Below are positions 836-64,000 of a stretch of 64,000 bases of DNA, one piece after another. Source of the stretch: Laetmonice hystrix. Lineage: Eukaryota. A program made the translations under genes and the position numbers. The first letter of the stretch is position 1. Every line of letters begins with the position of its first letter. The stretch covers positions 17,548,001 through 17,612,000 of the forward strand of contig OZ249436.1 of assembly GCA_965235115.1 (NCBI GenBank), written 5' to 3'. The notes under the pieces are model-generated. The model was not told the DNA's origin. It made no database searches and saw nothing but the letters and a program-made list of their open reading frames with translations.

Positions 836-1002
836 CATATGTGTGTGGCGCTGTATTTTTACACAGACTCTCTATCAAGGGCATGCTCTAATAAATTTAG
901 TCTAAGAGTGTAGTTTTACTAGACAGAGTCCAGTTCAAGGGGTGTCTGTATAGTGTGACAGTAAGATTTTCCCATTTGTAGGCCTACCTGTATCGTCAGA
1001 GC

Positions 1003-1222
1003 AATTCTTCCCGAAAGGTTCTACAATTCTTCCCGAAAGGTTTTACTATTCTTACTGAAAGGTTCTACAATTCTTCCCGAAAGGTTCTACAATTCTTACC
1101 AAAAGGTTTTACTATTCTTACTGAAAGGTTCTACAATTCTTCCCGAAAGGTTCTACAATTCTTACCGAAAGATTTTACAATTCTTACCGAAAGGTTCTAC
1201 AATTCTTACCGAAAAGTTCTAC
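1003..1222 (-). repeat. 22-bp minisatellite copying the CARD gene A exon 5 end and splice donor
   Basis: About 10 units; minus-strand unit GTAGAACCTTTCG|GTAAGAATT matches the real junction at 1210/1209. Confidence 0.9.
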
Positions 1223-2517
1223 ACGCAGCTTTGTCCATTCTTGATTTAGGGCTGTCAGCTCTCCCTGTGATATTGAATATAAAAAAAGAAAACTGAATGT
1301 TAAAAAAGATTCTTTCTTTCAATTTGGGAGATGGACAATTGGCTTTATTTTATTTAATTGAACGGTCGGGGGGATCTAATTTGAATTTCGATGCAACATA
1401 AGTGCTATACGTGTATGCAGCTACTCACGCGTAATTCATGCCTTCCCTGGTCACCCAGGAGGTGGATGTTGTGAAGTTTCTGTAGCATCTTGCCAACTTC
1501 CCCAAGGTCATGTTTTAATTGTGAAGTGTCTGGTATCATAACTGGAACACCAAAATTTTGGAACGATGTTTCATTTGGCTAATGGATTCATATGGCGTAA
1601 AGTACATGGTCAAATGACTCCAATTCCGAAACCCCTTGTTAAGAAGGCCGACAGAAAGTGATTGTTGACAAACTTACCAGCAGTTGGGAAAATATCAATG
1701 ACTTTTTCTCTGCCTGTGTCCACAAGGCAGTCAATTAACTTGCCGTAGTGCCACATGTACTTACACCGCATCAAGTCAAGTAACTGCCTAGACCGGGCGC
1801 GTGTAGTCTGCAATGTCTGCAATGAAATAAAATATGTGGGGTCAGTTGGCCGTGTATAGTCAGTATAGCAGGCCCCTACCCGGGGGGGGGGGGGATCGGA
1901 CCACTCCCCCCCCCCCCCCAAGGGGCAGAGGTCCACTTTTCCTTACAAAGAAGTATATGTACAGCTTTTTATTCTTGCCAGCTTTCGATGGAGAGCAAAA
2001 CCGCCGTCAAGCCCTGGTTGGCTATTTTTACCCAAGTGGTCCATCCTCACCTTTGTCGTATAGGTTCTAACATCCATTTCTTTCCAGGAACCAACTATAA
2101 TTATAAATGATGGCAAGAAATGATTAGTTTGTAGGCCTACCTTCAGTTCGTCAGCATTGTCCATAGTGAGAACACCCTGTTCCTTTAGGTGGTCTAGGAA
2201 CGAATCATCTATCAATAGGCTGTTGACGAGGTCCACCCTCCGAGAGGCGAATCCATTCTTCACCTCGTCCTGGAGGGGATGATTCCGTAAGACCGGATCT
2301 CGAGCCTGGAGAAAAGGACAGAATCTTTCAAACTGGCGGGAAATCTTCATTTGTCAACATCTAGATTACATAATTATATTCTAGTAATCTTTTATGCACA
2401 CTTTTATCAGTCAACACTTGACATTTGAAAGTATGACAATCTTACCCGCCATTGCGATTCTGTAATGCGGTTTGCGGTCGGTGTATCCATTTGGTGTCTC
2501 GATTCGTAGTTTGCCAT
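1210..2517 (-). CDS. CARD (death-fold) domain gene A, 5' five exons; 3' part not found in window
   Basis: Exons 2517-2446, 2305-2141, 1816-1678, 1541-1429, 1264-1210 (72, 165, 139, 113, 55 nt), GT-AG and phase-consistent. Peptide RRVDLVNSLLIDDSFLDHLKEQGVLTMDNADELK..RSRQLLDLMRCK..YGKLIDCLVDTG has the CARD pattern. Exons 2-5 have the same sizes as in paralog B. Confidence 0.85.
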
Positions 2518-4332
2518 CAGGAGGACGGAAATCTTGTCCAGGACGACATGCTGTTTCATATATCTTCTAACTGATCTAAACGTTTACCAGGAGACGAATA
2601 GAAATATGTCCTGATAGAGTACCTCGCTCCGGGAATACATGGCACGAGTCAGGCCGACACCACAGTATTCTAATCATGAAGGACTGCTTTACCTGAGAAG
2701 TATAGATTTTCTAGGCTTGATTTCCGTCAATCATAGACGAGATCAATCGATCGAGTTGTTTTTGTTGTTATCACATACTGCGTGGGACATAGGCCCTAGA
2801 ATGTGGCATCCAAGGACAGATCAAGGATTTTGGAAAGGGTAGTTTTTGTAAGGGGGGAGGGTAGGATAAGAAATTCAGTTGTTCTATGAAGAAACATTTT
2901 GGTTGCCAAGAGGGGGATCCCGTAACTTCCTTCGATTCTGCATGCCTACGGTTAATGAAATACGTCAGGGCCGTGAATTGCATTGAGGCGGCCGAGGCAG
3001 CTGCCTCGGCTAAATTTCCAAAAGTTAAAAAAATATGATGCCCTCAATTGCCCTGCCCCCTTTTTCAATGGGAGACATAAGATGGGCATATGTCCTCGCA
3101 AGTCATAGGCTTTTGATTTTTATTTCCAGATGCCGGGAAATAACTTTTTAGCCGTCCAAATTAGAACATTTTCTGCCCCCCGCCCACCGCTATACTTGAA
3201 TGGCCAAATTTCCTTTAAATTTACAGCCCTGACGGATACTGATTATAGCCTGCTTGTCATAACATGATATCTTTACTATACAAAAACTAGCGTTTTGCAA
3301 TCATTCACTGTCATCTTTTTTTCTAATTCAGATATAAGAATTAAATCGACGCTCTTTGAATACATTTATTTTAAAGTTCCTGCTCGAGAGATGGTGTCAT
3401 TTTGAACGGAGAGATCGACGTCCTAAAGGAAGAATTTGAAACTCTCAACACAGTAGTCCGCCCTATCTTTAAGTGGTCCTTGAATTTTTTTGCCATATTT
3501 ATCTCCACTTCTACCCTGGATAGGAGACAAGGAAGTGGAAAAGTAAATGTAGCTACTAGGCCTATATTCTCACTTGAATATACATTCAAGTTGCATGTCG
3601 CCAGCGGTCTGACCCAGTTAGACTGAACCTCGTTTTCGGTCGCGAGACTTAAGTGCCAGATCCACTAAGCCGAATCTCTTGCGAATTTGCCGTCGCGCCA
3701 AATTCGCATGATCTCATGAGCTGTCGGCGCGGATTTCGCTGTAGTGGATCAGGTATTCGCATGAGATTCGCAAGATCTCATGCGAATTCGCTTGGCCATG
3801 AGAATGCCAACCGACAAAATCCCAACGTAAATGACACGTATTTCTTGCGAATTTGCCGTCGCGCCGAATTCGCCTGATCTCATGAGCTGTCGGCGTGCAA
3901 ATTCGCTGTAGTGGATCAGGCGTTCGGTTGAGATTTGCATGTCGCATGGGAATTCGCGTGGCCATGAGAATGCAAAGCGAAAATATTCAAACGTTTAGAA
4001 ATTTTCGCATGGCTCGCTTGTGATCGCTTCACTTCTCCAAGATAGCCAACTTTGCTGTCCGGGCGGCGTTTTTAGTTACCGAGATTGATACTAGGTGGCA
4101 GGGGCCGGTCATGACCAAATCTGGGATCGTACACAAACCAGCGACAACTTGGTCGCTTTTGGCACGGTGGTTTGAGCTCTTCCGTCAGCTGTGACAGGGA
4201 GGAGGCCTACGTTAGCCGGTCGCCACGCTCGCAGTTATGCGAATACCTACCGCCTGTGGCGAGTTCCACTGCCAAAACCCAGCCCGGTCACTCTACCAGG
4301 CCGTAGTCTACTACGCCCTGCCTAGGTCGCGC

Positions 4333-4799: not shown

Positions 4800-5175
4800 A
4801 GTGTACTATGAAATATTGTTGCCTATGAAATATTGCAGCATTGCGTCACTGCATTATTTCACAGCCTGTAGCTATGAAATATTGCTGCCTATGAGATATT
4901 GCAGTATTGCATCACTGCATTATTTCATAGGCAGCAATATTTCATAGCCTGTAGCTATGAAATATTGCATAGCCTATAGCTATGGAATAATGCCGCCTAT
5001 GAAATATTGCAGTCATGAAGTAGCCTAGTCCATGTACTGCAATATTCCAAGGACTGCAATATTTCATAGCTATAGCTATGGAATAATGTCGCCTATGAAA
5101 TATTGCAGTCATGAAATAGCCTAGTACTGCAATATTTCACGGACTGCAATATTTCATAGCCTATAGCTATGAAAA
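4800..5175. repeat. AT-rich repeat of TATGAAATATTGC in both orientations
   Basis: The motif and its reverse complement GCAATATTTCATA recur many times. Confidence 0.75.
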
Positions 5176-6884: not shown

Positions 6885-9800
6885 TCAAAGATTTTCCAGC
6901 TTTCTCTCCTGGACCTCCTTTCTGTCGGCCTTTCCTGGCGAGTTCCTCTTTTCACAAAACTGGATCCTCCTCTGGATACCTCCGTGTGACTGTACGGAGG
7001 GGGGTAAGATCGACTTTGGTAGATTAACAACACAAACAACTGGCTGGTTTGTAGCTGTAGGTAGTACGTCATCGACAACAGTGACGTTTCCTGTGGCCAT
7101 GTCAACCGCCGTCACGTCACGTCTGTAGGCAAAACTTCCACTGTCGTCGAAACAACCTCCTCCTACCACGTAAAGTATGTTACCCAGAACGACGGACCCC
7201 GCCTGCCAGTGTGCCTGTTTTAATCTTGACAACACTGACCACTGCTGTTTGGTCGTGTCAAACACTTCCACAGGAAGCACATTAACTCCCTTGTCGTCCA
7301 TCTTGTCCATCCCTCCACACACCACCACCCGACCCGGCACGGACCCTGCCGTGTGGTACCGACGACGGTTTATCATTGACGGTGCTGTGGTCCACTCCCC
7401 ACGTCTCTCGTCATACGTACAGACACTATTACTGATACCACTGACCGAGCCACCAGTAGCATATAAAATCCCATCACATAGAGTGCTAGCGTGAGCGGAC
7501 CTTTGTCCAGCCATACTGGCCGCTGGCGACCATCTTAGCGTGGTTAGGTCGAATTGTTCGCATGAAGAGTATCGCTGACTTCCGTCTCGTCCGCCGACAG
7601 CCAGAACAGCCTCACCACTGGGTAGAATGTCCACCGTGAACAGTGTCCGGGCCACAGCCATTGACGGCAATTGATGCCATGAGTTAAGATGAGAGTTAAA
7701 TAACCAGCAGTCGTTTCTCGCTGGTGGCTCACTTTGATGGAATCTGTCCTGGCCGCCGATAATGATCACATAAGGACCAATGCAGACAGCGTTAGAAGTG
7801 GCTGTTTTGACCTGAAGATCAGTTGTCAAGGTCTCAAACGGTAGAAGCCGTCCGTCTGATAGCATCGGAGCAGCCATCATAGCGGGGATAGGGTCACCGC
7901 CAGTAGAACCTCCAACAACAGTCAAACATCGGGTCGACGGCCCTCCACCAACAGGGCAATGAATGCCAAGTTTCGCGAGTGCGTTGTCGACTTTTATACT
8001 TCCCTTGTCGAATAACACTGTAGAAAAGGAAACGTCCTGATCAGTGTCCGTTCCATTTTTCCGACTATCCATAGTTACTTGTTCACAGGCATGGATTATG
8101 GACTCGTTTATGTCGCCGTCACGGATGTATTTGGCCACCTCGCGGACCACATCAACATTATTAGGCGTTACCATCAGATGACCAGTGTACAACAGATGCA
8201 ACACCACACCAAGACCAGCCGCTGGTATGTTGTCCAGCTTGACCCGAGGGCTGACACTCTTTGAAATTTGATCGTCGATGTACTCAGAATAGGACCCGAT
8301 GATTTTAGAATGGACAGGAAACTTGACTCCGTCTGCCTCGAGCTCTACGTCGATGTCTTCATCCTCGGCTCGCAAGAATTGTACAGTTGAAATGGGGTTG
8401 TCTCGGTCGTAACATTTAGTGGGACAGCACCGTTGAGAAATAGTACATAGTCCTGTAAATACGACACAGGCATTACCTTTGGTATTCTACAGTCACTTCT
8501 AACTACTATAGTTCGAGATTTCGGGCAACTAAAAGACTTAAAAGAAATCACATAAAATAAGGTGGATTCGGCCGCGAATAAAAATAATGTTACCATCCTC
8601 CTTGATCCAGTATCCGAGACTGTGGACGAGGTGGTGCTGCCCAGTTATTGCCAGACGATCCAGGAAGCCGTAGATCTTCTGTAGTGATTTCTGTTGGATG
8701 ATCTTCAGGAGCGTCCGGTTCCTATCCCGTTTGGTCTTTTGGGGATCTGACTGGAAACGAGAGAGTAATAACTCCCGATAACTCTCTTTCAAGTCTCTCT
8801 AGAACTCCCCCACCCGTCCTTCAACAAGCAAAGGGCCTATCAAACAATAGTTTTGTCAACTTTATGTAAGAAACTGGCGTATACCTTAAGTCGCTTGATT
8901 TCTGAACGGGTAAGTATTGTTCCGGTTAGATTCTCCAAAATAACGTCGCAGTCTATGGTCTTCATGAAGTAAGGTTCTGCCTTTTGAAGGTCCCTCTTTA
9001 GGAGTTCCTCCAGGGGCAGGGTGTCTGAATCATCTGTTTGAGTACCCTCATCCTTCGTGGCAGGTCCTGCAATGAATGGTGTCAAAAACTGCGTCACGTA
9101 CGACGGTCACATCACGTCGAAATGAGTCGCGTCCCAACGCAAGACGTCGCATCGCATCAATCAATTAATCTATATTACTTGGAGATACCAATGAATTGGG
9201 CTTGACACTAAATATGTATTATTTTCATATTTATTAAAGGTGGATATATCAACTATGTACGGGCAACAGGCTTAACCCAAATGAATTTTAGAATGTTTCC
9301 TGGTAGAAATTGTTAGAACTACAATGGAATCGAACTCCGATCCTAAGATTAGGCCTACTTCACCAAGTCGCAGTGCGGGGGATGCGTAGAATCAAAACGA
9401 ATTCTTACGGAAAACTCTAAATACTCTATCGTTCCACATCCGATTAAGGCTGGCCATCCAACCCTGAAATAAGGAAAACGCAGGGTTATAACCTTTCCTG
9501 TGAGGCTTTATACTTGCGCCGACAAGTTAAATTCAATATTCTAATCTTTTCACGCACGAATCTCTATTAGAACCATTTATGGACGGTCGTTGATTCAGTG
9601 TTATGTGTCATCTACAGGACTTCCCGCAAGATCTAGAGGGGGCTCATGGCATGACACAATAAGGCTTGACTAACGGGTGGTGGTGTCTTATTCTTCACTT
9701 CTAGCAGGCAGGGAAATTATAGGGCCCAGCCCTAAAGGGCACAGAGCACCGGGCATCAATAAACACACGAACTGAGCGAACTGAGCGAACTGAGATCGTC

Positions 9801-11614
9801 TAGTTATGCCTGGGGGGATTCCCCATAGGGACTGGCTATTGACACCAACACGGAAACAGCTGACCTAAATTAGTTTGACTAATTCCTACACGAAACAGTG
9901 TGTTTGGGTTAGGGTAAAGGTTAGGCCTAGGGTTAGTGTTAGTTTAATCCCAAAATTGTTGTTAAAATAGTCAATAACTTCCGGCCGTGACGTCATACCT
10001 GAAGTCACTGGTTTGTAGCACGACTAATCGATCTCAGTTCGCCCAGTTCGTTCAGTTCGCTGTTTATGATGCCCCAGAGGACCTGCCATGCACTACACGT
10101 CCTTACCTGAAGGCCTGGCATCTCCTCCTCGCTGAGAACATGGAGGTTGGCAAGTCTTGGCAGGATCTCCTCAAGTGTTCTTATGTCCTGCTCTGTGTCA
10201 CCAGAAACCGGCACGATAACTATAAGCGAGTGCATTGGTATATATTACACCTTGTCGACCATATGTCAATTCTACCAGGGGCACGGGGTCTTTATGCGCC
10301 AAGTCGGTAAAGACAAGGCTGCACATAAAATTTTCTTTATGCCATATTGTCAGTTGTGATGACCCAATTGCGGAGCACTGGGACGGGAAAGTGGGACAAT
10401 GGTACTGGAAGGAAATAACCCCTTCTAACCCACTTTAGAGAGACAGGCTCGTCGTGTACAGATATGATTTCATTCGGCTGCACATTTCATTTCATAGCTA
10501 GAGACAACTTGAGCAATGGTCTACAAGAACTTACCAGGGGATGGGAGCAGCTTAGCAACATGGTCTCGGCCCATGGCCTTCAGGCAATCAATTAACTTGG
10601 CGTAATGCCACATCGACCTCCGGGTCAGCAGGTCAAAAAACATGCTTGACTGAGAATTTCCCGGGGTCTTGGCCTGTAACGATGACATAATGGGTCTGAA
10701 GGGTAGGTTAATCGTTAGTGCAGAGGTACCATAATTGTTTATCTTCATCATTACATTATAATAACTTGTGATAGAATAAAAAACAAAATGTACATCGTAT
10801 ATCACATGTATTATACTTATTCTATGGGTATTCAGGCACACAATGTACGGGTATTCAGACACACAACGTATGGATATTCAGACAACGTATGGGTATTCAG
10901 ACACAAGACGTATGGGTATTCAGACACATGACGTATGGGTATTCAGACACACGACATACCTTCAGTTCGTCGATGTTGCACTTATTGAGGATCTCGTCTT
11001 GTATAATATGGTTAAGGAACCGGTCGTTGATCAAGAGGTTGTCGGCGAGGGCCACTCTCCGACGGTTCAGGCCTTTTCTTACCTGGTATTGTAGGGGGTG
11101 ACCTTTTAACGTCTCGTCTCGAGTCTGGATGGAAATCAGTGGCCCCGGTCTCAGAAAGGCTCTAGGCAGCAAGTTTTAAGCTAAGCAGAGCTACGGCAGC
11201 CTATAGGGACATAGACCTTAAATATTGTTTTTAACTTTCCAAATTGATTTTCATCGATATTATCACAGTAATAATAATTTTACTGCGTGGTGGTAATATT
11301 TTCACAGCGGTGATTTTTCCACTCCCGTGAAAATCGATATAGAAAGTTAAAGTGTCCTCCTGCTAAGAGCCTTTCGGAAACCGGTAGGCGAACACATCGT
11401 CAAACAGAGCGGAATTTCTAAAAAAATCAGAAACAGTTTACGTTCCCCTTTACTAACAAAACTAACACGCTATTATCCAACGAACACCTCAGAGTTCGTA
11501 GTGAAACTGAATGTAAAAATCAGAGTGACAAACAGCTAGAAACGTTACCTCCCACTGTAATTTCGTTATCCTCTGCTCTGAATTAGTACGATCAACTTCG
11601 GTCGCGTCTGCCAT
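6885..11614 (-). CDS. CARD-CARD-BTB-Kelch protein (gene B), about 814 aa
   Basis: Exons 11614-11549, 11124-10960, 10673-10535, 10219-10107, 9463-9409, 9066-8885, 8750-8594, 8452-6885 total 2445 nt, GT-AG and in frame. Last exon encodes a BTB (DVELEADGVKFPVHSKII..LLYTG) and six GG-containing Kelch blades. Minus-strand AATAAA at 6799-6794. Confidence 0.8.
9752..10074. mobile_element. MITE-like palindromic insertion in gene B intron 4
   Basis: GGCATCAATAAACA..GAACTGAGCGAACTGAGATCG at the left is the inverse of CGATCTCAGTTCG..TGTTTATGATGCC at the right. Confidence 0.65.
10820..10957. repeat. 23-bp minisatellite abutting the gene B exon 2 donor
   Basis: GTATGGGTATTCAGACACATGAC about 6 times, ending at the donor at 10959. 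Confidence 0.85.
11141..11385. mobile_element. MITE of the GGCCCGGTTTCAGAAAG TIR family
   Basis: Imperfect TIRs; related sequence at about 17579, 30509 and 30750-30905. Confidence 0.6.
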
Positions 11615-13905: not shown

Positions 13906-14402
13906 GCAGTGCATGATACCCACAGTTAATGTCATGGCTAGGAATGAGCGAATTCGAATCTTTAAAGGCCCTTACCGTTCCTTACCAGATGCGGTAACCA
14001 AACATCTATAAGAAACTACTAAGGGGTAAGAGTGTTTGATATGAAGTGGGAAGACGTCGAATTTCTAATATTGTGAGCTATTATTTTCTTTCTTTCTTTT
14101 TGTCTAGTTGAAAGGGGAAATTTGTAAATCAAACAAAAATCAAGAATAGAGGTTACTGCTTCTTCAGGTGGAGTGGAATGACGGGCGAAAATCGAACCCA
14201 AATCGGCGACCGCAAAGGCGTTGCAGTTCTGTGCTATCAAAGAACGAGGAATCTTAAACTCATCTTCAGATTTCGTATTTTTTATTTTTTCGAAATTGTA
14301 ACAACTTGTAGTCAACTTTATTAAACATGAAGGCGGGGGGGGGGGGGCTCCGAGGACTTCTAGACTCCTTCATTGGAATTCGGAATAGAAACATCTCAGC
14401 GT

Positions 14403-17400
14403 TCAGTCGTCCTTATTGCGATTTTCAACCTTCAGCCAAACACCATTGATTGGCTGCAGCAGTCCGCCGAACTTGAAGGTCAACGGAATCTGGAACAAAT
14501 ATATTGGTCGCTTCACTGTTCCACGCCAGGTGAAATATCACAAAATATAATAATACAAGAAGGCAGGGTTTGCAACAAAAATTATTGTTTTCTTTCTTCA
14601 TTCGTGTCCTAAAATCCATACTGCTCGTCCCTTCGTGAACTTTATTCGACTTCAATCCTACATTAATACATTAATACCTTGTTACATTCAGCAATTATCT
14701 ATATGTAAAGGTGTGTGCACATTGCCAGTCAGCATATTGATCTATCTATATAAAGAGGTGTCTACATTGCTTGAATGTTTTACCTGTGTTTTCCCACAAG
14801 TAACCACCCTGGTTTTCCGAAGTATGTGGACGATGCCGATTTTCACCTCAAGCAGGGCAAGTCGCATCGCAATGCAGTTTCTTGGGCCATAGCCAAATGG
14901 GATCCAATCGAATGGGCCTCGCTGAGCCTTGTTCTCGGCAGAAAATCTGCCGTATATCATAGAGATTATCACTGGTGTACATATATCATAGACTAGCATT
15001 AGTGTATCATATAGACTATCACTGGTGTACATATCATAGACTAGCATTAGTATATCATATAGACTATCACTGGTGTACATATCATAGACTAGCATTAGTA
15101 TATCATATAGACTATCACTGGTGTACATATCATAGACTAGCATTAGTATATCATATAGACTATCACTGGTGTACATATCATAGACTAGCATTAGTATATC
15201 ATATAGACTATCACTGGTGTAAATATCATAGACTCTTTAGTCAGAACAAGTCTTACCTTTCAGGTTTGAATTTCTCAGGCTCAGGCCATCTTTTCTCGTC
15301 ATGGTGTATCCCAAAGATAGGAATGTTCACCATCATGCCTTTCCTCAGATGGATGCCATTAATAGTGACATCTCGCGCGGCTTCGCGGTTTCCCCTAAAC
15401 ATGAAATTTTCCAGCAGTAAAAGAAATAATCCTTGTCTGACTGCGTGTAAAAGGTACACTACAGGAATGTCTATAAGTTGATATCAAGTTAATGTAGACG
15501 TGAGATTGTAGATATCAAGTTAATGTAGACGTGAGATTGTAGATATCAAGTTAATGTAGACGTGAGATTGTAGACATCAAGTTAATGTAGACGTGAGATT
15601 GTAGATATCAAGTTAATGTAGACGTGAGATTGTAGATATCAAGTTAATGTAGACGTGAGATTGTAGATATCAAGTTAATGTAGACGTGAGATTGTAGATA
15701 TCAAGTTAATGTAGACGTGAGATTGTAGATATCAAGTTAATGTAGACGTGAGATTAGCTGTCATTACAGTATCAGTTGCCCGGCATTGTAACATTTTGGT
15801 GTGACGGATAATAGTCACGTGTACTGACTGAAAGTTGGGGATATAGTCACGTGTACTGACTGAAAGTTGGGGATATAGTTACGTGTACTGACTGAAAGTT
15901 GGGGATATAGTTACGTGTACTGACTGAAAGGTGCGGATATAGTCACGTGTACTGACTGAAAGGTGGGGATATAGTCACGTGTACTGACTGAAAGGTGCTG
16001 ATATAGTCACGTGTACTCAGTGAAAGGTGGGGATATAGTCACGTGTACTGAGTAAAAGGTGCTGATATAGTCACGTGTACTCAGTGAAAGGTGGGGATAT
16101 AGTCAAGTGTACTGATTGAAAGGTGGGGATATAGTTTCGTGTACTGAGTGAAAGGTGGGGATATAGTTACGTGTACTCACTGAAAGGCGGGCGGATAGAA
16201 TCGAAGTGATTCCATGAGGCACTGGTCCAAGTACTGCATTCCTTTCACGGTCTCATATTTCACATCCTTGTTTAAGGAGGAGTAAATAAATTACCAATAT
16301 TAAATCAAATAATCCAAGAGTCAATATAATTGTGCCTACTCGTATTCAATCTTATTTACCTAGATGTCTGACATCTGCAAGTAGTTCATCTGGTTAACCC
16401 AGTAAGCCTACCCTTGATGGCCAGGTTTAAAGGCAAAACTTGGCTAGAGGTAATCTTCTAGGTACATGTGTACATGTATTCTGACCTTGTCTCCGACAGT
16501 GTCCTCTATCTCCCGGGCTAGTTTCTCCTGACAGTTTGGGTTTAAAGCCATGTTGTACAGGAAAAGGGACAAAGTAGTTGCCGTGGTGTCAAATCCAGCC
16601 AGGAAGAAAAGGAAGCTATTGGCCAGGACCACCTCATTTGAGACACCTAACTCAGTCACAAGAACAAGAAACAAGTATAGAAAGAGGCGCATCAACGAAT
16701 CCTTCTTCTTTTTTTTTTTTACTTATTTTTGTTTTGCCGCAGATCTGAAAACATTAGTGTGTTATCCATAGATGTCAGTTCCTATGCTACAGCATAGGGT
16801 AATCGTAGGCTGTGACAAAGTGATCCACTAGGTCTCTGTGTCCAGTCCTTGAGATCGCCAGGCTGTGACAAAGTTACCCACTAGGTGTCTGTGTCCAGTC
16901 CTTGAGATCGCAAGGCTGTGACAAAGTTACCCACTAGGTCTCTGTGTCCTGTCCTTGAGATCGCTAGGCTGTGACAAAGTTACCCACCATGTCTCTGTGT
17001 CCAGTCTTTGAGATCGCGGGGCTGTGACAAAGTTACCCACTAGGTCTCTGTGCCCTGTCCTTGAGATCGCAAGGCTGTGACAAAGTTACCCATTAGGTCT
17101 CTGTGTCCTGTCCTTGAGATTGCTAGGCTGTGACAAAGTTACCCACTAGGTCTCTGTGCCCTGTCCTTGAAATCGCAAGGCTGTGACAAAGTTACCCACT
17201 AGGTGTCTGTGTCCAGTCCTTGAGATCGCTAGGCTGTGACAAAGTTACCCACTCGGTCTCTGTGTCCAGTCCTTGAGATCGCAGGGCTGTGACAAAGTTA
17301 CCCACTAGGTGTCTGTGTCCAGTCCTTGAGATCGCTAGGCTGTGTCAAAGGTACCTACCATGTTTCTGTGGCCTGTCCTTGGGATTGCTAGTCTGTGTCA

Positions 17401-49372: not shown

Positions 49373-52300
49373 CAACACAGGGCCGTGCCCCGGGGGGGGG
49401 GGGGGGGTCTGTAACCCCCCTAAGGTGCCAAAGATTTCTTTTTTAGGCGTTTTAGGTCCTAACTAATACAGTCAGTCCACTGTAACCCCCCCCCCGCACC
49501 AATCTCTGGGCACGGCCCTGCAACAGGTTCTCCTAGACCCCCCCCCCCCCCGGGCCCCCCTCCAGCTTTTCGGCTCCTTGTGCCTGCGACATTTGAGACA
49601 TTTTGGAACAGATAGTGCAAACCCAAACATGTGCACTGACTTGTGGCCAGCCAGAAGGATCCATTAGGCCTATTTATTATCACAATGACAAAATCTGATC
49701 CTTATAGATCTATCTAACATTGTCTCTGGTTTGGTTTGGATGAAAATAAAATGTTTCAATAATTTCACCAGTTGTTTTTTAACTCGTGTTTATATCCAGT
49801 AGAAGATGATACACAGTTAGAAACGGACGCTGCTCTAGGCTCACCTGAATCTGGTCAGAAAATTTAGTGACTCAGCGACACCCCATTCCCCCTTCGATGA
49901 AGGATCATGTAGTTACAAATTATTTGAATGTAGTCATTTATTGTGAAGCAAATAAGGCCTAGACTTAAGAAATTAATATTCAAAGTATGCCCAAATATGT
50001 ATCAATAATTACCCTACTGATCATAGATGTCTACTATTGTTTTATAAACAGAACCCAATGTTTGTAATATAGGCCTAATCCTCTGTCATGGAGTGACATT
50101 ATATATTTGACATTGCTGTAAGCTGGGGAGAGTCACTCCATGACTTCGAATTTGCCCTAGGCCTAATTAAGATTTTAATTAGAATTCTGCTCTGCTGATA
50201 GGCCTACATGTTTAAAAATGTTTCCATAGCAGACTAAAAAACTAAAAAAATAATTTCTTATATGATCATTCGAATTTAACCTATCGCATTTTTTAAATAT
50301 CCAAGCACTAAAAGTAATAGAAACCCTCATTTGCAGATTATATTTATGAGTCGCTTCACTGCATAATCGCGACGCGTTGTAAGGGAGGTCTCTGTGGGAG
50401 CACCCTCACATAGTTTTTAGGAAAGAGAGAACGGAAGGTGAAGTGAAGATGGAGGCGATGTGGTTGTTGGCGAAGACTTCATATATTTATTCGAGATGTT
50501 CAGATATACTTAGAGCTGCGGACTCTCCTCCATACCGTACCGGACTCCCCAGAGTGAGTGCGCGAGAGAGAGTGAGAGTTTTCTTACATTTAGAAATTAT
50601 GACTAATATTACTGTATACCCCATACAAGGCGTCCCCGCCGCATCCAACTGGTGTGTAACCATCCGTATGTAAGGAACGCGGCGTTAGTGGTGTGATCAT
50701 TACATGCATCACTTTCATTGGTTCCAGACAACATCCCCCCAGTATCGCCGGCTCCCCATACTCCAACATACCCCCTCCCTACCAACGCTTATAAATCAGA
50801 CAATAAAGTATATAACAGTTAGGCTATTACACACATCAAATAATACTTAGGTTTATACTGTTATAGTAGGCTAAATAAAGTGAGTAAATATTGGCGGCCA
50901 CCAAGATACATAATAAAACACACAATAAAACACATAATAAAACATTCGTACATATTGTACTATTTTCCTTACAGCGTTTCACAGTTTCACGCGCTGTGTT
51001 TCCACCTAGCGTTCAAACACGGAACCCAGAGAACCGTGGCGCCCTCTGGAGAGTTTCTTTGACACTCTGCCTCCCCGGTGATTCCAAGCAGTGACGTCAT
51101 TTTGGGCTATATAGGTCAGGAAATACCCCCGTTTGGCGATTGCAAAATACGGTCTCAGTTAACGACAAGATAACTGGAAAGGGCGATTTATTTATATGTT
51201 CCGAAGTGAATGGCAAACGTTTTCTGCCATAACGATCTTTGATTTAATTTCTTGTTAGAGTCTTTTTCGACCTTGTCGTTCATATTTTTCTTTAAATTCT
51301 TAACTCTATATAGCTGCTGCTAACCTCCATCATGGAACGGCATTTCGTTTTTGACACCACCCTGATTTAACCTCTTCCGGTGTGAGCAAGTGGAAGATTT
51401 CGGAGCCGTCGTTTTACAATTTGAGGTGTAGAATACATGTTACAGCAGAATGCGCTGAACACAATCAAGTAAGAGTCCCAGCCAGACCATGAGAGGCCAG
51501 CTGGCTTGGAAAGACTTGGCTGGCTTGCCCCGTAACTAAATAAGTGAGGTACTCAGTCGGGAGGTGGTGATCTCTGTCCGGTTTCACACCGACTGGGCGA
51601 TCAACCGCGGCGGACATGAGGAGGTTGTCAGAGGGACCCTCTACAAACAAAACAAACCAGCCACCAGCTACACAACAGTGAAGGTTGGACGGGGCTACGG
51701 GTTACAAACGGCGTTACTGGACTCAAGAATTTATCTTATTCTGTCTAGAAAGATATTTAGATAAGATGTTGTGAGAGTGACAGCAGTTGACTGTGCCGTG
51801 CCGCATCCCGTGGTCTACTCCAACAAGTCAGAGTCCTAGTCCTTACGTCCATACGGACTCTGACCGTCGAGTACAAATGCGCCAGCGACTGCTATGCTGC
51901 CGGGGTTCTATCTCGGTCCTATCGCGCATGATCGCCTCAAAGTCATGTTTCAGACCACTTTTGGCACTGAAACTTGCTGAGAGTACACAAAAGAGGTTAC
52001 TTCAACAGATACGTAGATGTATTTTGTTGGATGTTATCTTAGTAGGTGAAATTCTCAGCTTGTTTGGTCAAATTCAGCGCAGCGCGGGTGACGAGCGGTG
52101 ACCCAGTTTATCGGGTGTGCGTATTTTCGACTCCTACAGTTGATCCGGAACGGACCGCATAAGTAGGTCGCGCTCTGTTCAAGCAGACGCTGACGGCACA
52201 GAGTGAAGCTACCCGTTTCGGGTACCAGTAGCGATCTAACTTTTATCAGTTCCCGGTCACTCGGTGCACCGCAGATGGCTGACGGAGCTACGGACCCGAC

Positions 52301-53230
52301 ATGCTCCTAAACAACCGGACCGTGTGGACGTTATATTTGTCCAATAATTATAATCAAGGTCGGAATAGAAATTTCAATACCGTGGCTCTCTATAAAAATC
52401 GATTTCATACTCCGTGGATGAAGTTTAGTACCAAAACGAAGGCCGCAAAGTTGCGATAACGGACCTCTTCGCAGAGCGTCCGAGAGTCGCTGGGCCAGCG
52501 TCACTCAACAACTAAACGGTGTTCTGGAAGACACCGTTTAGAAACTGAACTACCCGTGGTCGTGGTGCTGTGACTGTGTTGAGTGGGCGTGCCTGCCTTG
52601 TCTTGTAAAGTTACAACTTTCCTGTCGGCCCGTGAGTCGAAGCCAAGACTTTGTTGTCCCCGGGACCATCCACTGTTGCCACAGCTGAGGCCTGTGTGCT
52701 AACGAGTAACGGTATTGTACATGACTCGAGGATTAATTAATTTATTAAAGCAGGTGTGATAACTCTACACCGGTCTGGTGACACTGACAGTAAAACGTTC
52801 AGGTGTTGTGACAATAGCCTTTCACAGGTCTCATAGACGGGTGTCGTAAACAAAACTACACAGTAGGTGAAAACCCCAGAGATTTTAGTCCTATCATCAC
52901 AGTGAGTGTTTACACAGTGACAGGTGTCATAAACAAAACTAGACTGGCTACAACCACAGGCAGAGATTTTAGATATCATCACAGTGAGTGTTTACACAGT
53001 GACAGGTGTCATAAACAAAACTAGACTGGCTACAACCACAGGCAGAGGTTTTAGATATCATTCACAGTGTTATAATTAATCGAGTCATCCTCCTTGGAGA
53101 CACGGGTACCATTTAATTTATCGTCTGAAGGGGAGTGATTTCTTTCCCGGCTGTGAATCACTGACAAGTTTCTACACTATACTGACTGTGATACGTGGCC
53201 TGTCTGAGCCGTCAGTGTCCGGTAATATCA

Positions 53231-56200
53231 ATGACAATGACTGGAACTGTGAGTGGACACATGCATTATGGTGATGTTGAGGTCGCCGTAAAGCGTCACA
53301 TAAAGAACGGAGGACCTGAGATGTATGGTTCAACATACGAGTTCCTAGATCTTCAGATAGACAGTCGATGTGCCCCACTCTGCTGTGACTCACAGGAGAA
53401 GTCTATCCCACTCTACAGATACCAAGATATCCCACCATTCTTACGAGGAAATCCATATGTTGTCAGCGGTTACAGGTCACTGCTGCCGTTCAGCCTCTGC
53501 TGTCGAAGGTAAGATTAAGTGTTGTCTTCACTGAGATTATTATATATGTTTATTTGGTTGGGCTCCATAATCATTCTGTGACTGGTTTGGACATGTATGT
53601 CTGGAGAAAATATCTTTCATCTATATGCTGCAAATTGAGCAGTGCCTGATTCCCCCATGAACCTAAGATAAATGTTGCATTTTCTTAACATGTGGATTCC
53701 ACGTTGGAAAGCAATCACATGATTTTCAGTAATGTAAAAATATCAATACCATGCAAACACAATAGGGCCTACTTTCTTTTTTCCCCTGGAATGTTTGAAT
53801 CATTCAAGGTAGGATTGTTTGGGAATTACAAATGCTTTTTGCCTCATCTCACAAACAATATCTGTTCTTGAGCTGTATGATAATTTACTGACTGAAACTT
53901 TTACCTACAGCCTGTTTATCTGGAGCAATGAGACGATCAATGTTTGGTCTCACCTTGGAGGTTGCATCCTCTTTATCCTCCTCCTCATCTATGACAACCT
54001 TGTGTCACTGCCCAGCATTAGAGCGACCTTCTCGGATCACATCATCGTTTCCTTGGGCCTCGGCTGCTTTCAGGTAGGAACCACACAGTCGGATCTGATC
54101 TAACAGCTTCAAGTGTTGTCATGTTTTCAGTGTGTGTGTGAAGGATTTATATTGTAACTTAATTTGTGATACATCAGATTACAAATTATGTAATATTGTC
54201 TGAGACTGATACTGGGGTACAGATCCAATCAGATGTTAAAGTCACTTATTGGATGTTCCTACTAATTGTTTTACAAAGTTTGTAGCATGGCTTTTATTTC
54301 TGACCCTGAATGATTTCTACTCCTTCTGGCGTTCTCTCTATAGCCAAAAGTATATCAAGTGTAACAGTTGACACCCCCAAAATTACATTTCTCAGGATTT
54401 ATAAATATTTCCCCTCTGATAATTCCTTCTTTGTGTTTCAGTTTTGCCTGATATGCTCTGCTGGTTACCATCTCTTCAACTGTCACTCAGAACGGGCGTC
54501 AAAACGATGGCTAGTACTGGATCTGTCAGGAATATCTGTCGGCCTGATCGGGTGCTACCTGCCAGGAGTCCACTACGCCTTCTACTGTCTCTCAGTACGG
54601 CTTCCCTTATCAGTGTATTCAAATACATATAGACATATATGTTGCCATTCATAGAATGACTTGTTATTTAATAGCATGTTGTCGATTGAAAGTGAAACAG
54701 ATACAAAAAGTAATAGTATATATAGCATATTTCAGTGATATTTAAGAGGATTTCCAAAAGATTTTGTAATAAGATGTCAACATGTGGTTTGCATAGCAGG
54801 GCTTCAGATAATATTTTAAGGTGGGGAGTTTTTGACTCCTCCTCTTTTTTCAGGTTGCGTATTGTAGTACCCATCCTCAACAAGTGTTGCGTATTTGACT
54901 TCTAACTTCCAACTTCCAACTGACCTGCATGTGTTTGCTAATGCTGGGAACAACTGAAACTGACAACTTATAGTATTGTCCAGTTGGCACCCTACTGGCA
55001 GGGTGCCAACGTGTCCAGCTGTTGGCACCCAGCCAGTGCTTGCTGACCACTGCAGACCATTAGAAGCCCCCTCCCAACCATATTTGACGCTCAGTGCAGA
55101 AGGACTCAGCATATGGAAAGCTTTTATTACCCAATACTGATGCGTTTTTGACGATAGGGTCTTCAAAATTACTGCGTATTTCCACCACTTCAGTGCGTAA
55201 ATACGCAAATACGCACCTTATCTGAAGCCCTGGCATAGATTTACCCGATGATTACCTGTTTGTTCATGTGATGGTGTTAAGTCTGCCTGATCATCATCAG
55301 TTGTTGTTCATGGCAGTGATGCTGTTTCAGATTTGGCGAGACGTGTACCTGATCGTCATCAGTCTGTTGTTCATGGCAGTGATGCTGTTTTCAACCATGC
55401 CACAGTATAACTCCCAGGCATGGTTTTACCAACGTATCATCATGTACTGCGGCCTGGCAGCCTATGGGGTGATACCAACCATTCACTGGGTCTACCTGAA
55501 CGGGGGATTGACAGCACCTTTGGTATATGTAAGTGGTAGTACTCCCTCCATCATGGATTACAAGATAAAATATAAATATTCATCTTTTCAGTGACTTAAA
55601 TATTAAGTTCAAATTTTTTGTTTGATATATGTTTGATATATGCATGTATTAACAGCTCTCACTTTATATGAGCATGTCAAATTATGACTAGTGTCTGGCA
55701 TCTCCGGTGTAATGAGGTACACTGTGCAAGCCTTCCTTCTTTAAACATTGAATGTGCTGATTAATGTTTTCATGAGGAAAAAGCTTGAATTGCTTTTCTA
55801 TTAAATCAAGAGACAGTGAAGCATCATGCAGTCAGTACTGGTACCTTGCCTTCTTCCTGTTCTCACCATCTATGTCTGCCAGCTGCTGCTGTCTCTAACA
55901 GCTGTTATGTCCTCTTCTAACAGCTGTTCCTGCCCAAAGTGACTGTGATGTACCTGCTTGGAATCCTAGCTTTCTTCTTCTACATCACCAAATTCCCAGA
56001 GCGGTACTTCCCAGGTGAGATCTCTCAGGTGTATGTTTTATAAAATGTAAAACTGCAGGGGAAGCCTCATGTTAGTGACCTAAATAAAACTTAAAAACTT
56101 CAGAGATCATCTTAAAGTCTGTCAACAAAACAGGATTAACTTTGGAATATATTAAGATTATTATTACGTTTCTACAAGTATGTGCTGAAAATTCCATCTT

Positions 56201-57391
56201 AGACGTGTTATTTCATGAAAAATTGTGTTGAGAACTTCTACCGAGTAATTCAATGGTTTGCCTACTTTCTTGGTGGTATTAAAAAAATGGGCTAAAAATA
56301 AAGCGCGATGAACGTTTTACACTTGGCAGGACCAGGCTTCTCCGAGATTTGGAACTGGCCACTTTTTATTACTATTTGCATGTATTCTACTTATAGCTGT
56401 TGCTTCCTGGTTATTAAAATTTAACTGATTGCACACCTCGATTTGATCTTCCACTTGTACCCGTGATTTCAGCTAAAGCCTGCCATCATTTTCAGGACCC
56501 TTCTAGATGTTCCAGGTCACTTTGACTACATTGGATCAAGTCACCATTGCCGACTTGTTTTGTTGTGTTCCAGGTCACTTTAACTACATTGGATCAAGCC
56601 ACCAGTGTTGACTTTTATTGTTTTGTTGTGTTCCAGGTCACTTTGACTACATTGGATCAAGCCACCAGTGTTGACTTTTATTGTTTTGTTGTGTTCCAGG
56701 TCACTCTGACTACATTGGATCAAGCCACCAGTGTTGACTTTTATTGTTTTGTTGTATTCCAGGTCACTTTGACTACATTGGATCAAGCCACCAGTGTTGA
56801 CTTTTATTGTTTTGTTGTGTTCCAGGTCACTTTGACTACATTGGATCAAGCGACCAGTGTTGACTTTTATTGTTTTGTTGTGTTCCAGGTCACTTTGACT
56901 ACATTGGATCAAGCCACCAGTGTTGACTTTTATTGTTTTGTTGTGTTCCAGGTCACTTTGACTACATTGGATCAAGCCACCAGTGTTGACTTTTATTGTT
57001 TTGTTGTGTTCCAGGTCACTTTGACTACATTGGATCAAGCCACCAGTGTTGACTTTTATTGTTTTGTTGTGTTCCAGGTCACTCTGACTACATTGGATCA
57101 AGCCACCAGTGTTGACTTTTATTGTTTTGTTGTATTCCAGGTCACTCTGACTACATTGGATCAAGCCACCAGTGTTGACTTTTATTGTTTTGTGTGCCAG
57201 GTCACTTTGACTACATTGGATCAAGCCACCAGTGTTGACTTTTATTGTTTTGTTGTGTTCCAGGTCACTTTGATTACATTGGATCAAGCCACCAGTGTTG
57301 GCATTTTATCATCTTGTTTGCCTTCCTCTGGTGGCATCACGCCGGGCAACAAATTCTTGAGTACCGTACAAATCAACCATGTCCAGCCTGA
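53231..57391 (+). CDS. PAQR3: Progestin and adipoQ receptor family member 3, about 336 aa
   Basis: Exons 53231-53508, 53911-54073, 54442-54594, 55331-55528, 55924-56014, 57264-57391 (1011 nt). Motifs NPYVVSGYR, SNETINVWSH, SAGYHLFNCHS, PERYFPGHFDYIGSSHQCWH. Exact start ATG is uncertain. Confidence 0.9.
56507..57299 (+). repeat. 63-bp array of the PAQR3 last-exon acceptor plus exon start
   Basis: 13 copies of CCAG|GTCAC..; only the last continues into the real exon. Confidence 0.95.
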
Positions 57392-58729: not shown

Positions 58730-59193
58730 AGGCCAATACACATGATGCGATTCTTCTTCGGCGATGGGTCGGCGACGAAGCATCGCATAAAGGCCGGTTT
58801 ATAGTCCGTCGACCGACCATCGGCCGACCATCTCTCAACGTCAGGTCAAAGTTCACGTAGGTTTAACTCTCAGCGATCGGGCGGCCGACGGCCGGATCGC
58901 TGAACTATAAACGTTCAGCGATGGTCGGCCGATGGTCGGCCGACGGACTATAAACTGGCCTTAATGTGTATTGGGTCGCTGATCAGTCGCCGGCCCGTCG
59001 GCGATGCATCGCCGACCGGTTCACAAATTCTGACAGTGTCAGAACTTCTGGACCCGTCGCCGACGGCTGGGGGTTAAGAACGGTAGGAGCGCTGTATCCC
59101 GCCCATCGCCGACTCATCGGCGATCCATCGGCGAGTTCAGGTGGGAAACTGGGTCCGACTATTTGTCGCCGGCAAATCGCATGTGTATTCCTT
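58730..59193. mobile_element. PIF/Harbinger-like MITE containing a nested MITE (58791-58961)
   Basis: Both flanked by TAA duplications. Outer TIR AGG..AATACACATG, inner TIR AGGCCRGTTTATAGTCCGTCG. The outer element splits a 69-bp satellite unit at CTCTAA|CAT. Confidence 0.75.
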
Positions 59194-59679: not shown

Positions 59680-62600
59680 ATTCTAACATACCATAGCAGG
59701 TGACGTTCATGACGTCCGGTACTCTCTACTCTAGATGGCGTTACAATCGTCTCTAACATAAACCATAGGCGGCGTTCATGACGTCAGGCGGTCATGACGT
59801 CCGGTACTATCTACTCTAGATGGCGTTACAATCGTCTCTAACATATACCATAGGTGGCGTTCATGACGTCCAGTACTATCTACTCTAGATGGCGTTACAA
59901 TCGTCTCTAACATATACCATAGGTGGCGTTCATGACGTCCAGTACTATCTACTCTAGATGGCGTTACAATCGTCTCTAACATATACCATAGGTGGCGTTC
60001 ATGACGTCCAGTACTATCTACTCTAGATGGCGTTACAATCGTCTCTAACATATACCATAGGTGGCGTTCATGACGTCCGGTACTATCTACTCTAGATGGC
60101 GTTACAATCGTCTCTAACATAATACCCATAGGTGGCGTTCATGACGTCTGGTACTATCTACTCTAGATGGCGTTACAATCGTCTCTAACATATACCATAG
60201 GTGGCGTTCATGACGTCCGGTACTATCTACTCTAGATGGCGTTACAATCGTCTCTAACATATACCATAGGTGGCGTTCATGACGTCCAGTACTATCTACT
60301 CTAGATGGGGTTACAATCGTCTCTAACATATACCATAGGTGGCGTTCATGACGTCAGGTACTATACTCTAGATGGCGTTACAATCGTCTCTAACATATAC
60401 CATAGGTGGCGTTCATGACGTCCGGTACTATCTACTCTAGATGGCGTTACAATCGTCTCTAACATATACCATAGGTGGCGTTCATGACGTCAGGTACTAT
60501 ACTCTAGATGGGGTTACAATCGTCTCTAACATATACCATAGGTGGCGTTCATGACGTCAGGTACTATACTCTCGATGGCGTTACAGTCGTCTCTAACATA
60601 TACCATAGGTGGCGTTCATGACGTCCGGTACTATTTACTCTAGATGGCGTTACAATCGTCTCTAACATATACCATAGGTGGCGTTCATGACGTCCGGTAC
60701 TATCTACTCTAGATGGCGTTACAATCGTCTCTAACATATACCATAGGTGGCGTTCATGACGTCCAGTACTATCTACTCTAGATGGGGTTACAATCGTCTC
60801 TAACATATACCATAGGTGGCGTTCATGACGTCAGGTACTATACTCTAGATGGCGTTACAATCGTCTCTAACATATACCATAGGTGGCGTTCATGACGTCC
60901 GGTACTATCTACTCTAGATGGCGTTACAATCGTCTCTAACATATACCATAGGTGGCGTTCATGACGTCAGGTACTATACTCTAGATGGGGTTACAATCGT
61001 CTCTAACATATACCATAGGTGGCGTTCATGACGTCAGGTACTATACTCTAGATGGCGTTACAGTCGTCTCTAACATATACCATAAGTGGCGTTCATGACG
61101 TCCGGTACTATTTACTCTAGATGGCGTTACAATCGTCTCTAACATATACCATAGGTGGCGTTCATGACGTCAGGTACTATCTACTCTAGATGGGGTTACA
61201 ATCGTCTCTAACATATACCATAGGTGGCGTTCATGACGTCCGGTACTATCTACTCTAGATGGCGTTACAATCGTCTCTAACATGTACCATAGGTGGCGTT
61301 CATGACGTCCGGTACTATCTACTCTAGATGGCATTATAATCGTCTCTAACATGTACCATAGGTGGCGTTCATGACGTCAGGTACTATCTACTCTAGATGG
61401 GGTTACAATCGTCTCTAACATATACCATAGGTGGCGTTCATGACGTCAGGCGGTCATGACGTCCGGTACTATCTACTCTAGATGGCGTTACAATCGCCTC
61501 TAACATATACCATAGGTGGCGTTCATGACGTCCGGTACTATCTACTCTAGATGGCGTTACAATCGCCTCTAACATATACCATAGGTGGCGTTCATGACGT
61601 GCAGGTACTATTTACTCTAGATGGCGTTACAATCGTCTCTAACATATACCATAGGTGGCGTTCATGACGTCCGGTACTATCTACTCTAGATGGGGTTACA
61701 ATCGTCTCTAACATATACCATAGGTGGCGTTCATGACGTCAGGTAGGCTACTATCTACTCTAGATGGCGTTACAATTGTCTCTAACATATACTATAGGCG
61801 GCGTTCATGACGTCAGGTAATATATCTACTCTAGATGGCGTTACAATAAGCTCTAACATATACCATAGGTGGCGTTCATGACGTCAGGTACTATCTACTC
61901 TAGATGGCGTTACAATCGTCTCTAACATATACCATAGGTGGCGTTCATGACGTCAGGCGGTCATGACGTCCGGTACTATCTACTCTAGATGGCGTTACAA
62001 TCGCCTCTAACATATACCATAGGTGGCGTTCATGACGTCCGGTACTATCTACTCTAGATGGCGTTACAATCGCCTCTAACATATACCATAGGTGGCGTTC
62101 ATGACGTGCAGGTACTATTTACTCTAGATGGCGTTACAATCGTCTCTAACATATACCATAGGTGGCGTTCATGACGTCCGGTACTATCTACTCTAGATGG
62201 GGTTACAATCGTCTCTAACATATACCATAGGTGGCGTTCATGACGTCAGGTAGGCTACTATCTACTCTAGATGGCGTTACAATTGTCTCTAACATATACT
62301 ATAGGCGGCGTTCATGACGTCAGGTAATATATCTACTCTAGATGGCGTTACAATAAGCTCTAACATATACCATAGGTGGCGTTCATGACGTCAGGTACTA
62401 TCTACTCTAGATGGCGTTACAATCGTCTCTAACATATACCATAGGTGGCGTTCATGACATCAGGTACTATCTACTCTAGATGGCGTTACAATCGTCTCTA
62501 ACATATACCATAGGTGGCGTTCATGACCTCCGGTACTATCTACTCTAGATGGCGTTACAATCGTCTCTAACATATACCATAGGTGGCGTTCATGACGTCA

Positions 62601-62800
62601 GGTACTATACTCTAGATGGCGTTACAGTCGTCTCTAACATATACCATAGGTGGCGTTCATGACGTGCAGGTACTATTTACTCTAGATGGTGTTACAATCG
62701 TCTCTAACATATACCATCATAGGTGGCGTTCATGACCTCCGGTACTATCTACTCTAGATGGGGTTACAATCGTCTCTAACATATACCATAGGTGGCGTTC
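59680..62800. repeat. 69-bp satellite, about 45 copies, with an internal 507-bp duplication
   Basis: Unit CATAGGTGGCGTTCATGACGTCCGGTACTATCTACTCTAGATGGCGTTACAATCGTCTCTAACATATAC; variant units recur 507 bp apart (61446/61953, 61743/62250). Confidence 0.97.
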
Positions 62801-62888
62801 CATTCGGGATCCCCTCGGGCATATGACGTCACTTCCTGCTATTCGAATATACCCTCGGGTGGATTAGTGGCCATGTTTGGCAACCGGA

Positions 62889-64000
62889 TAGTAGTAGTAG
62901 TTTATTGACCAAACTGGTCCAAAACAATACAAATGCATAGAAACAATAGGGTGATCGCAGTTCTTCGAATACTGACCACAAACTGGTGTTACAATTACAC
63001 AATTCAAGTGGCACCAACCACATTAGAGGCCCTATAGGCCTAAGAGCTTTCAAAATACAATAGGATTTCATGATGGATACACTTAAACTGCTCAACAGTG
63101 TGCGCTTTTACGACAAAATCTGGGTATATGACAGGAGACGAATTATATCTCTGCCTGATATTATTTACAAGAGGGCATACCTGTATAACATGGGGTTCGT
63201 CTTGTACAGCCCCACAAGCACATAGTCTATTTTCTCTTGGGATTCGAGACCACCGCCCCGTTTCTATTTTGAGCCGATGGGAGGACAGTCGCAGAGATGT
63301 AAAAGACATCCTTAAATATTCTGGGATGTACCGTTTATCACAATTCAAATAAACATTATGAACTGCGAGGGAAGGGTTAATGGTTTTATACGTAAGAAAT
63401 TTTGATTTGTCCGATCCCTGTATTCTTTCTTTTAGGTTAATCATCCCTAAAGCACTATAGTCATCAGATCGGGTCACTATATCAATAACATTTCCCATTT
63501 CGGTACGGTTATAACGAGCCAGCTCAATAGCAAACATCAGTGGATCATCAAGCAAACCAACTCTTGATTCAATCATTTTCCTGAAAAACAATCTTTGTCG
63601 CTCTAAGACGAAGAATTTAAGAGGTGGGTACCCTACTTCCGCAAGGCATAAGTCATTCGCGGTCGTAGACCAAACTCCCAAAAGTGCCTTTATTGCTGCG
63701 TGGTATATTTTGTCCATCTCCTTCAGGCCGCCCCCTAACCAACTTTCACACCCATACATAATAGCAGACATAAACGCTGCATCTAGAACTTTCTTCTTCA
63801 CTATAAAGGGCATATCTATATTACGTCTGAAAAAAAAACAGTTAACTTCAGGAGATGTTTCTTAACACTCTTAACGTGCTCCTTTACGGCTGTTCTAATT
63901 TTCCCATCACATGTAAAAATACTCCCTAAGTAAGTATATGTTTTGCAATGTTGAATAGCCAGCGACGCGTCCCCATCTATGACTATTGTTTGCCTATCAG
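62889..64000 (-). mobile_element. Non-LTR retrotransposon (LINE) 3' end: RT C-terminus and CCHC knuckle
   Basis: ORF 63813-63040 with YGCESW, RLSSHRLKIETGRW and CACGAVQDEPHVIQVC. Upstream YTYLG motif lies across a likely frameshift in the A-run near 63830. Tail is AATAAA followed by (CTA)n at 62906-62889. Confidence 0.9.

Follow-up and report, generated by a model that had tools for sequence, protein, structure and literature searches.

The 64,000-nucleotide stretch of the Laetmonice hystrix genome analysed in our study (assembly GCA_965235115.1, contig OZ249436.1, positions 17,548,001 to 17,612,000; hereafter the window) is animal DNA of 44 % GC, which carries two tandem CYP genes, a single-exon kelch open reading frame (ORF), a small LRR gene and a HlyIII/PAQR-type gene, with many tandem arrays across its length. 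Scattered through it is a short palindrome, TAGGCCTA, in which GGCC stands between two TA dinucleotides, and our analysis suggests that this motif and its variants are probably footprints left by a transposon on excision from TA sites. Most work on such footprints concerns single laboratory loci, whereas here a stereotyped footprint would be visible in a region of a natural genome.

Exact counting found 49 copies of TAGGCCTA between 979 and 63042, slightly above the 35-45 estimated in the first-pass annotation, which had put the expectation at about one; shuffled versions of the window held a mean of 0.78 and a maximum of 3 (100 shuffles). Ten copies lie in tandem arrays (nine in a 23-bp array at 33493-33993 and one in a 340-bp array), and outside the arrays 39 were observed against 0.68 expected, a 57-fold excess (46,057 unmasked bases, order-2 Markov model). 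G/C runs aside, no non-satellite 8-mer of the window is more over-represented, and the motif is also the commonest TA-NNNN-TA word, the next being seen 17 times. Its TA context is specific: TAGGCC is followed by TA in 98 of 120 strand-counted cases, and GGCC, found 49 times between two TAs, occurs at most once between each of 18 other duplicated di-, tri- or tetranucleotides. The variants TAGGCTA and TAGCCTA and the doublets that had also been reported were recovered 13, 14 and 4 times, respectively. Four of the TAGCCTA copies (4970-5157) were masked with the mixed tandem/inverted array in which they sit (4802-5171), which is made of units of ~25-30 bp with TAGCCTA and TAGCTA and is possibly a foldback remnant. 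A short-read contig, probably from the same sample, matched 47049-49173, with 14 motifs inside, at 0 differences, and TAGGCCTA is therefore not an assembly error.

The inserts between the two TAs form a narrow series. Outside the arrays, the GGCC excess was accompanied by GGC plus GCC (the two 7-mers; 20 observed, 4.4 expected), GGGCC plus GGCCC (4 and 0.35) and GC (13 and 7.0), while GG plus CC showed no excess (16 and 20) and the count of GGCGCC was 0. Among the 16 palindromic TA-NNNN-TA words, only GGCC, GATC (7 and 0.69), CATG (6 and 1.1) and TATA (8 and 2.6) were raised, and two of these represent weaker companion families, TAGATCTA (7 and 0.7) and TACATGTA (6 and 1.1). One-substitution neighbours of TAGGCCTA were barely raised in the window (22 against 15.9 expected), which suggests that these motif copies, referred to below as scars, are young, with about 2 % decay per site if neutral.

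Comparison of duplicated sequences within the window revealed sites with and without the insert, and all four indels cited in the first-pass annotation are real. TAGGCCTA is present in the fifth unit of the 340-bp array (44811-44818), where the other four units have a plain TA; in an intron of CYP copy 2 (35305-35312), where copy 1 has a plain TA near 21867; and in a short dispersed repeat (9350-9357), whose paralog has a plain TA near 11816, the pair being 76 % identical. The fourth is a +GGCTA, giving TAGGCTA, in two units of a 69-bp satellite (61744-62257) compared with the other satellite units; judging from the private variants that they have in common, the insertions at 61744 and 62251 are one event in a duplicated block. 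Two more events were found, giving six independent +GGCCTA, +GGCTA or +GCCTA events at TA. One is a +GGCCTA in CYP copy 2, within its 23-bp intronic array (33493-33993), where nine copies of a single event were amplified (nine units with the insert and 13 without, against none with and nine without in copy 1). The other is a +GCCTA at 25122, compared with an inverted paralog near 40966, which follows a complex cluster of three TAGGCCTA, TAGGGGCCTA and filler (25055-25128) facing a short TATA-containing stretch in the paralog; the bounds of this cluster were read by eye, the MAFFT alignment there not being clean. The inverted dispersed repeat pair concerned (24580-25363 and 40752-41605, 79 % identity) is scarred differently in its two members, with the GGCC/GCC cluster in one and a doubled CATG in the other. 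That doubled TACATGTA, of the second, Tc1-type family (41017-41030; plain TA in the paralog near 25027), is a doubled CATGTA insertion that was read directly, MAFFT misplacing the gap, and a less clean case is TAGATCTA, of the third family, at 24484-24491, where BLAST opens a 6-bp gap against the paralog in CYP copy 2 but MAFFT gave a net gap of only 4 bp.

Overall, 16 of the 49 TAGGCCTA copies were flagged as having an empty paralog, five of them self-overlap artefacts (doublets or near-repeats) and 11 real; dispersed copies with no alignable empty paralog remain at 979, 2132, 3557, 5693, 6293, 9922, 23820, 27369, 34986, 37021, 39005, 39709, 39812 and 63035. The flanks differ at every indel site and are near background in composition, purines being mildly preferred at -1, and so the insert is not copied from its flank. 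Insertion is the parsimonious direction because the long allele is the minority in both arrays, in one of five units of the 340-bp array and in two units against 35 without in the 69-bp array. Three contig runs from one sample, covering 44900-56400 at a low identity threshold, gave an indel table swamped by repeats; no scar indel was among the rows listed from it, and a weak hint is that, over the additional stretch 46783-47733, the gap letters of X3 record 19 exceed those of X2 record 11 by 6.

The scars are concentrated in a hot zone around the small LRR gene (45898-50874), which holds 20 of the 39 non-array TAGGCCTA, 11 of the 20 TAGGCTA/TAGCCTA and 4 of the 7 TAGATCTA, with mixed scar chains at 46887-46921, 47447-47493 and 49024-49045. 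The interval 45.7-50.9 kb contains 439 of 3,369 TA sites and gave a binomial P of 1e-8 for the scar excess, the interval having been chosen post hoc; after correction by scanning, the richest 5.2 kb held 17 collapsed sites, whereas the highest count reached in 5,000 random placements was 14. The gene itself (48462-49372, forward strand, ATG at 48462) has three exons predicted from GT/AG boundaries (approximately 48462-48552, 48830-48999 and 49248-49372), and scars were found upstream, downstream and in both introns, with zero in the predicted exons. The smaller cluster at 25055-25128 is situated ~650 bp above a putative CYP start, placed by eye near 24406, and zero scars were found in 52-60 kb, the PAQR-type gene body and beyond. 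Clustering at the gene start, seen as one clear cluster in one window, may mark germline-open DNA, and it offers a directly testable link to germline chromatin.

A replicate of the insert series was obtained from metagenome contigs, in which a doublet scan of one of the 64 parts of the collection yielded 120 loci; seven were dropped as repeat arrays (L029, L052, L072 and L078) or as composition or length outliers (L055, L086 and L092). The remaining 113 contigs (287 kb, doublet masked) look like animal host DNA, as their ORFs are of LRR, ankyrin, RT and UCH types. Observed and expected counts were 155 and 2.4 for GGCC, 120 and 23.7 for GGC plus GCC, 17 and 1.0 for GGGCC plus GGCCC, and 73 and 88 for GG plus CC. 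For the first three classes, the counts in 50 viral contigs that had been picked with this doublet too were 35 and 9.2, 34 and 70, and 4 and 3.8, and because contigs chosen in this way do not show the three-class series, the series is not an artefact of selection. One-substitution neighbours of TAGGCCTA were enriched in the animal-like contigs (206 against 68 expected), as was the G4C2 insert (6 against 0.19); these neighbour and G-run counts also leave out L021, which has bacterial-looking genes. An apparent TAGGCTTA family was rejected, being mostly one telomere-type repeat array with 140 copies in L078, and the residue after array removal (45 against 6.2 expected) may be decay. In L078, extended arrays of TTAGGC-type repeats run on both strands and falsely inflate motif counts.

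We consider it probable that TAGGCCTA and its variants are footprints left by end-joining after the excision of a transposon that targets TA and has GG(C) at its ends; a Tc1/mariner/IS630-like (ITm) element is the likeliest source. In Tc1/mariner transposition, the non-transferred strand is cut a few bases inside the element and the footprint consists of the terminal 2-4 nt between two TAs (PMC6943129; this and the other papers with accession numbers are cited from excerpts). The two TAs are seen here in the six paralog indels and in the TA specificity of the motif, and the insert, of a matching size, has no origin in the flank. The first-pass annotation had proposed such footprints, and everything testable fits (the fixed, non-flank insert, the second TA, the 3-, 4- and 5-nt variants and TACATGTA), but the source element was not found in the window and the origin is for this reason one that we infer. 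Its further proposal of GGC..GCC ends was borne out in part: a 5'-GG is constrained by the data and GGC is probable, but GGG or GGCC ends would fit too.

Mechanistically, the element would insert at TA and duplicate it. On excision, its transposase would cut 2-3 nt in from either end, the donor would keep 3' overhangs of GG or GGC, and germline end-joining would retain them. GGCC could then arise by 2+2 joining, in the manner by which Tc1 gives TACATGTA, with occasional 1- or 3-nt ends, or by annealing of two 3' GGC tails through their self-complementary GC. Tails overlapping fully across a G:G mismatch would yield GGC or GCC, the one-base-shorter joins, and tails overlapping by one mismatched base would yield GGGCC or GGCCC, the one-base-longer joins. 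Both 2+2 joining and 3-nt microhomology fit the spectrum; G4C2 fits neither simply and may derive from G-run slippage or GGG-ended relatives. Since each scar would make two TAs from one, scar chains can build up. A low-copy, ever-hopping element would leave many scars and few residents, and if full insertions near genes were also selected against, the scars and the lack of residents would be compatible.

The best lead to the scar-making family is a candidate 420-bp element in a scar-rich contig (L065:897-1316), which begins GGCGCG inside a TA at both ends and has 35-nt arms that are 89 % complementary, showing that the predicted end type exists in a scar-rich genome. The same element also carries internal short repeats, and its end pattern gave 2 viral matches. 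Candidates of Tc1/mariner type for the TACATGTA family, TA-flanked and with CAC or CAG ends, were seen in the scar-rich contigs at L011:10583-11368, L016:1231-2157, L038:4747-5518 and L057:11088-11299.

A number of observations weigh against the footprint interpretation. Searches for terminal inverted repeats found no intact element with TA-flanked GG ends in the 64-kb window, in keeping with the earlier statement that no copy bounded by TA, GGC...GCC and TA is present, and Pfam detected no transposase domain among the window ORFs (27 and 148 ORFs) and none among 36 metagenome contig ORFs. At least 39 scars stand against 0 residents in the window, which needs an extra assumption and is unlike the ratio of ~2.6-2.8 insertions to each excision for rice Mariner (PMC4423477). 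The TA-flanked Tc1/mariner-like ends in the contigs read CAC, CAG or CGA, not GG, and GG ends are typical of the PHIS superfamily (PIF/Harbinger, ISL2EU, PHISTA), Harbinger having the consensus GG(G/C)CC and ISL2EU GG (PMC4482050, PMC4122938). Only six events of this type were found, in a self-alignment with 110 distinct indel contexts of >=3 bp. The metagenome contigs were themselves chosen for the doublet, and the viral controls still show a 3.8-fold excess of TAGGCCTA; the L065 element is a single copy in another organism, without empty-site proof, and its inverted match runs ~4 bases beyond the TA. Finally, search listings of the open-access literature (Repbase Reports and subscription journals being outside this scope) yielded no ITm family with GGC ends and no paper on TAGGCCTA, TAGGCTA/TAGCCTA or TACATGTA as genomic footprint words. 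Among supplements, no GGC-ended terminal inverted repeats were found in PMC10379824 and no TAGGC or GCCTA in PMC4482050 (text only, without figures and logos), and the excerpts of PMC9179366, PMC10045372, PMC4455052, PMC2874221 and PMC8533490 contain no GGC-ended TA family.

As to the agent, an ITm enzyme is the likeliest, a choice that we hold with rather less assurance than the footprint interpretation itself, and a TA-duplicating PHIS-type enzyme is unlikely. The inferred GG(C) ends would resemble those of the PHIS superfamily, which includes a TA-duplicating lineage from rust fungi, PHISTA (PMC12730594). However, PIF/Harbinger excision is precise (PMC4423477, PMC4561436), whereas mariner-type excision leaves terminal bases (PMC4561436), and the scars keep 3-5 nt. 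Harbinger duplicates TWA and ISL2EU duplicates AT in an A-AT-T context (PMC4482050); in the window, GGCC was found 0 times between TAA or TTA, 0 times between CAG or CTG and once between AT, and the empty sites are of the type GTAC. It is on these properties of PIF/Harbinger and ISL2EU that the ITm enzyme is ranked first.

Four other explanations were weighed against transposon footprints. That TAGGCCTA is a selected, promoter-proximal protein-binding motif, with the indels as gain and loss of functional sites, would account for the strong clustering around the LRR gene start, and the scarcity in the window of one-substitution neighbours (22 against 15.9) could reflect constraint. We nevertheless think it improbable, since the gains are whole 5-6-bp insertions with TA duplication that also occur in satellites and introns, the 7-, 8- and 9-nt variants differ by core indels that a site of fixed spacing would presumably not tolerate, and neighbours are enriched in the contigs, as neutral decay predicts. 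Secondary selection on some scars could still occur.

A variant of the favoured explanation, with equally low probability, is that the element ends in a palindromic GGCC and is cut with Minos-like 4-nt overhangs that religate as perfect sticky ends. Minos leaves a 6-bp footprint. Such a cut would explain the dominance of the 4-nt class, with a one-base shift giving GGGCC or GGCCC, and footprints of <=4 nt are within the Tc1/mariner range (PMC6943129). However, a GGC/GCC class of the size seen (an excess of ~16, against 38 for GGCC) would not be expected from perfectly cohesive ends, the L065 candidate ends in GGCG rather than GGCC, and palindromic ends would have to be assumed for the CATG and the GATC family as well.

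Slightly less probable again is a host process in which staggered breaks at TA receive telomerase-type GG addition on both ends (TAGG plus CCTA) or another templated end-addition. TAGG is part of the TTAGGG repeat, and the enriched G-run series G2C1, G2C2, G3C2 and G4C2 (the last in the contigs) would suit such addition. Against telomerase healing, neither TTA priming nor TTAGGG phases were seen: T is not preferred at -1 (0.22 against a background of 0.28 in the window, and 0.20 against 0.29 in the contigs), TTAGGG shows no excess (15 against 22.9), G3C3 was seen 0 times and G3C1 showed no enrichment. End-addition also leaves the CATG and GATC families unexplained. Slippage, hairpin or template-switch mutation of local sequence could extend doublets and mixed chains once a scar is present, but it is very improbable as the source of single insertions such as GTAC to GTAGGCCTAC, which have no GGCC template in either flank and whose flanks are near background.

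Among known systems, the closest is Tc1 of Caenorhabditis elegans, which has 2-nt overhangs. Of 103 frame-selected germline revertants, 24 carried the product TA-CA-TG-TA (class L), and templated fillers were frequent (PMC4490562). The scars share with this product the TA duplication, two terminal bases per end and a net insertion of 6 bp, the filler at 25055-25106 resembles the templated fillers, and TACATGTA occurs here as a minor family. Unlike Tc1, whose core is CATG and whose product was one of 26 at a single selected locus, the core here is GGCC and a single product prevails, with a density of about one per 1.2 kb of natural non-array DNA. Sleeping Beauty, with CAG ends, leaves the canonical footprint TAC(A/T)GTA (PMC6943129), and its three terminal bases between two TAs would be matched by TAGGCTA/TAGCCTA for GGC ends, although the 3-nt class is a minority here and the 4-nt palindrome is dominant. 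Genome-wide footprints in rice were likewise found by comparison of homologous loci, with activity concentrated near genes, but the rice excisions varied in their products (8 of 94 were perfect) and were outnumbered by the insertions (PMC4423477), whereas the scar described here is stereotyped.

The chemistry and mechanism are already known; what our study adds is the quantification of the insert series, with a replicate and a control from other genomes, together with a candidate end, an apparently young age and gene-start clustering. If confirmed, TAGGCCTA, TACATGTA and TAGATCTA would record past transposon families, their cut geometry and germline repair even where no elements remain, and mutation of this kind would supply motif searches with false 'promoter motifs'. 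A broader possibility, which we put forward tentatively and regard as doubtful, is an undescribed GG(C)-ended, TA-targeting lineage that is widespread in animals, stays at low copy number and leaves dense young scars preferentially in germline-open gene starts. Were this true, TAGGCCTA density would be a fossil map of chromatin accessibility readable from genome sequence alone, and self-seeding scars, each adding a TA, would be a major driver of promoter and first-intron turnover.

The inverted-repeat searches of the window gave only small elements with other target duplications, which we take to be Harbinger/Nuwa-like, Kolobok-like and hAT-like. A 175-bp element at 58789-58963, presumably Harbinger/Tourist-like, has 56-nt inverted arms (AGGCC...GGCCT) between TAA duplications; the element at 22768-23304 is TTAA-flanked and AGGGG-ended (assumed to be Kolobok-like), that at 49378-49522 is CAGGG-ended (assumed to be hAT-like), and an 870-bp element at 20464-21332 has long inverted arms. 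Two others (30749-30906 and 54799-55230), with GGGC-starting inverted ends and CWG-like flanking triplets, resemble NuwaI (PMC4482050).

Elsewhere in the window, repeated exon fragments at 1943-2353, 8580-8760 and 10520-11175 have a death-fold (CARD-like) look by eye, and two tested ORFs gave no Pfam match at E 0.001. A LINE-like ORF fragment, labelled by reading and without a Pfam match, encodes 273 aa on the minus strand at 63035-63861; its stop codon coincides with a TAGGCCTA copy, and its end may have been set by the scar. The tandem CYP duplication (14400-24600 and 26500-37700, minus strand) has minisatellites at homologous positions in its introns, often with different units and abutting exon edges. 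Very high-copy repeats lie at 46436-46819 and 51812-52579, with a summed contig depth of 50,000-210,000 against ~50 for unique DNA, and the latter is flanked by a direct repeat of ~9 bp.

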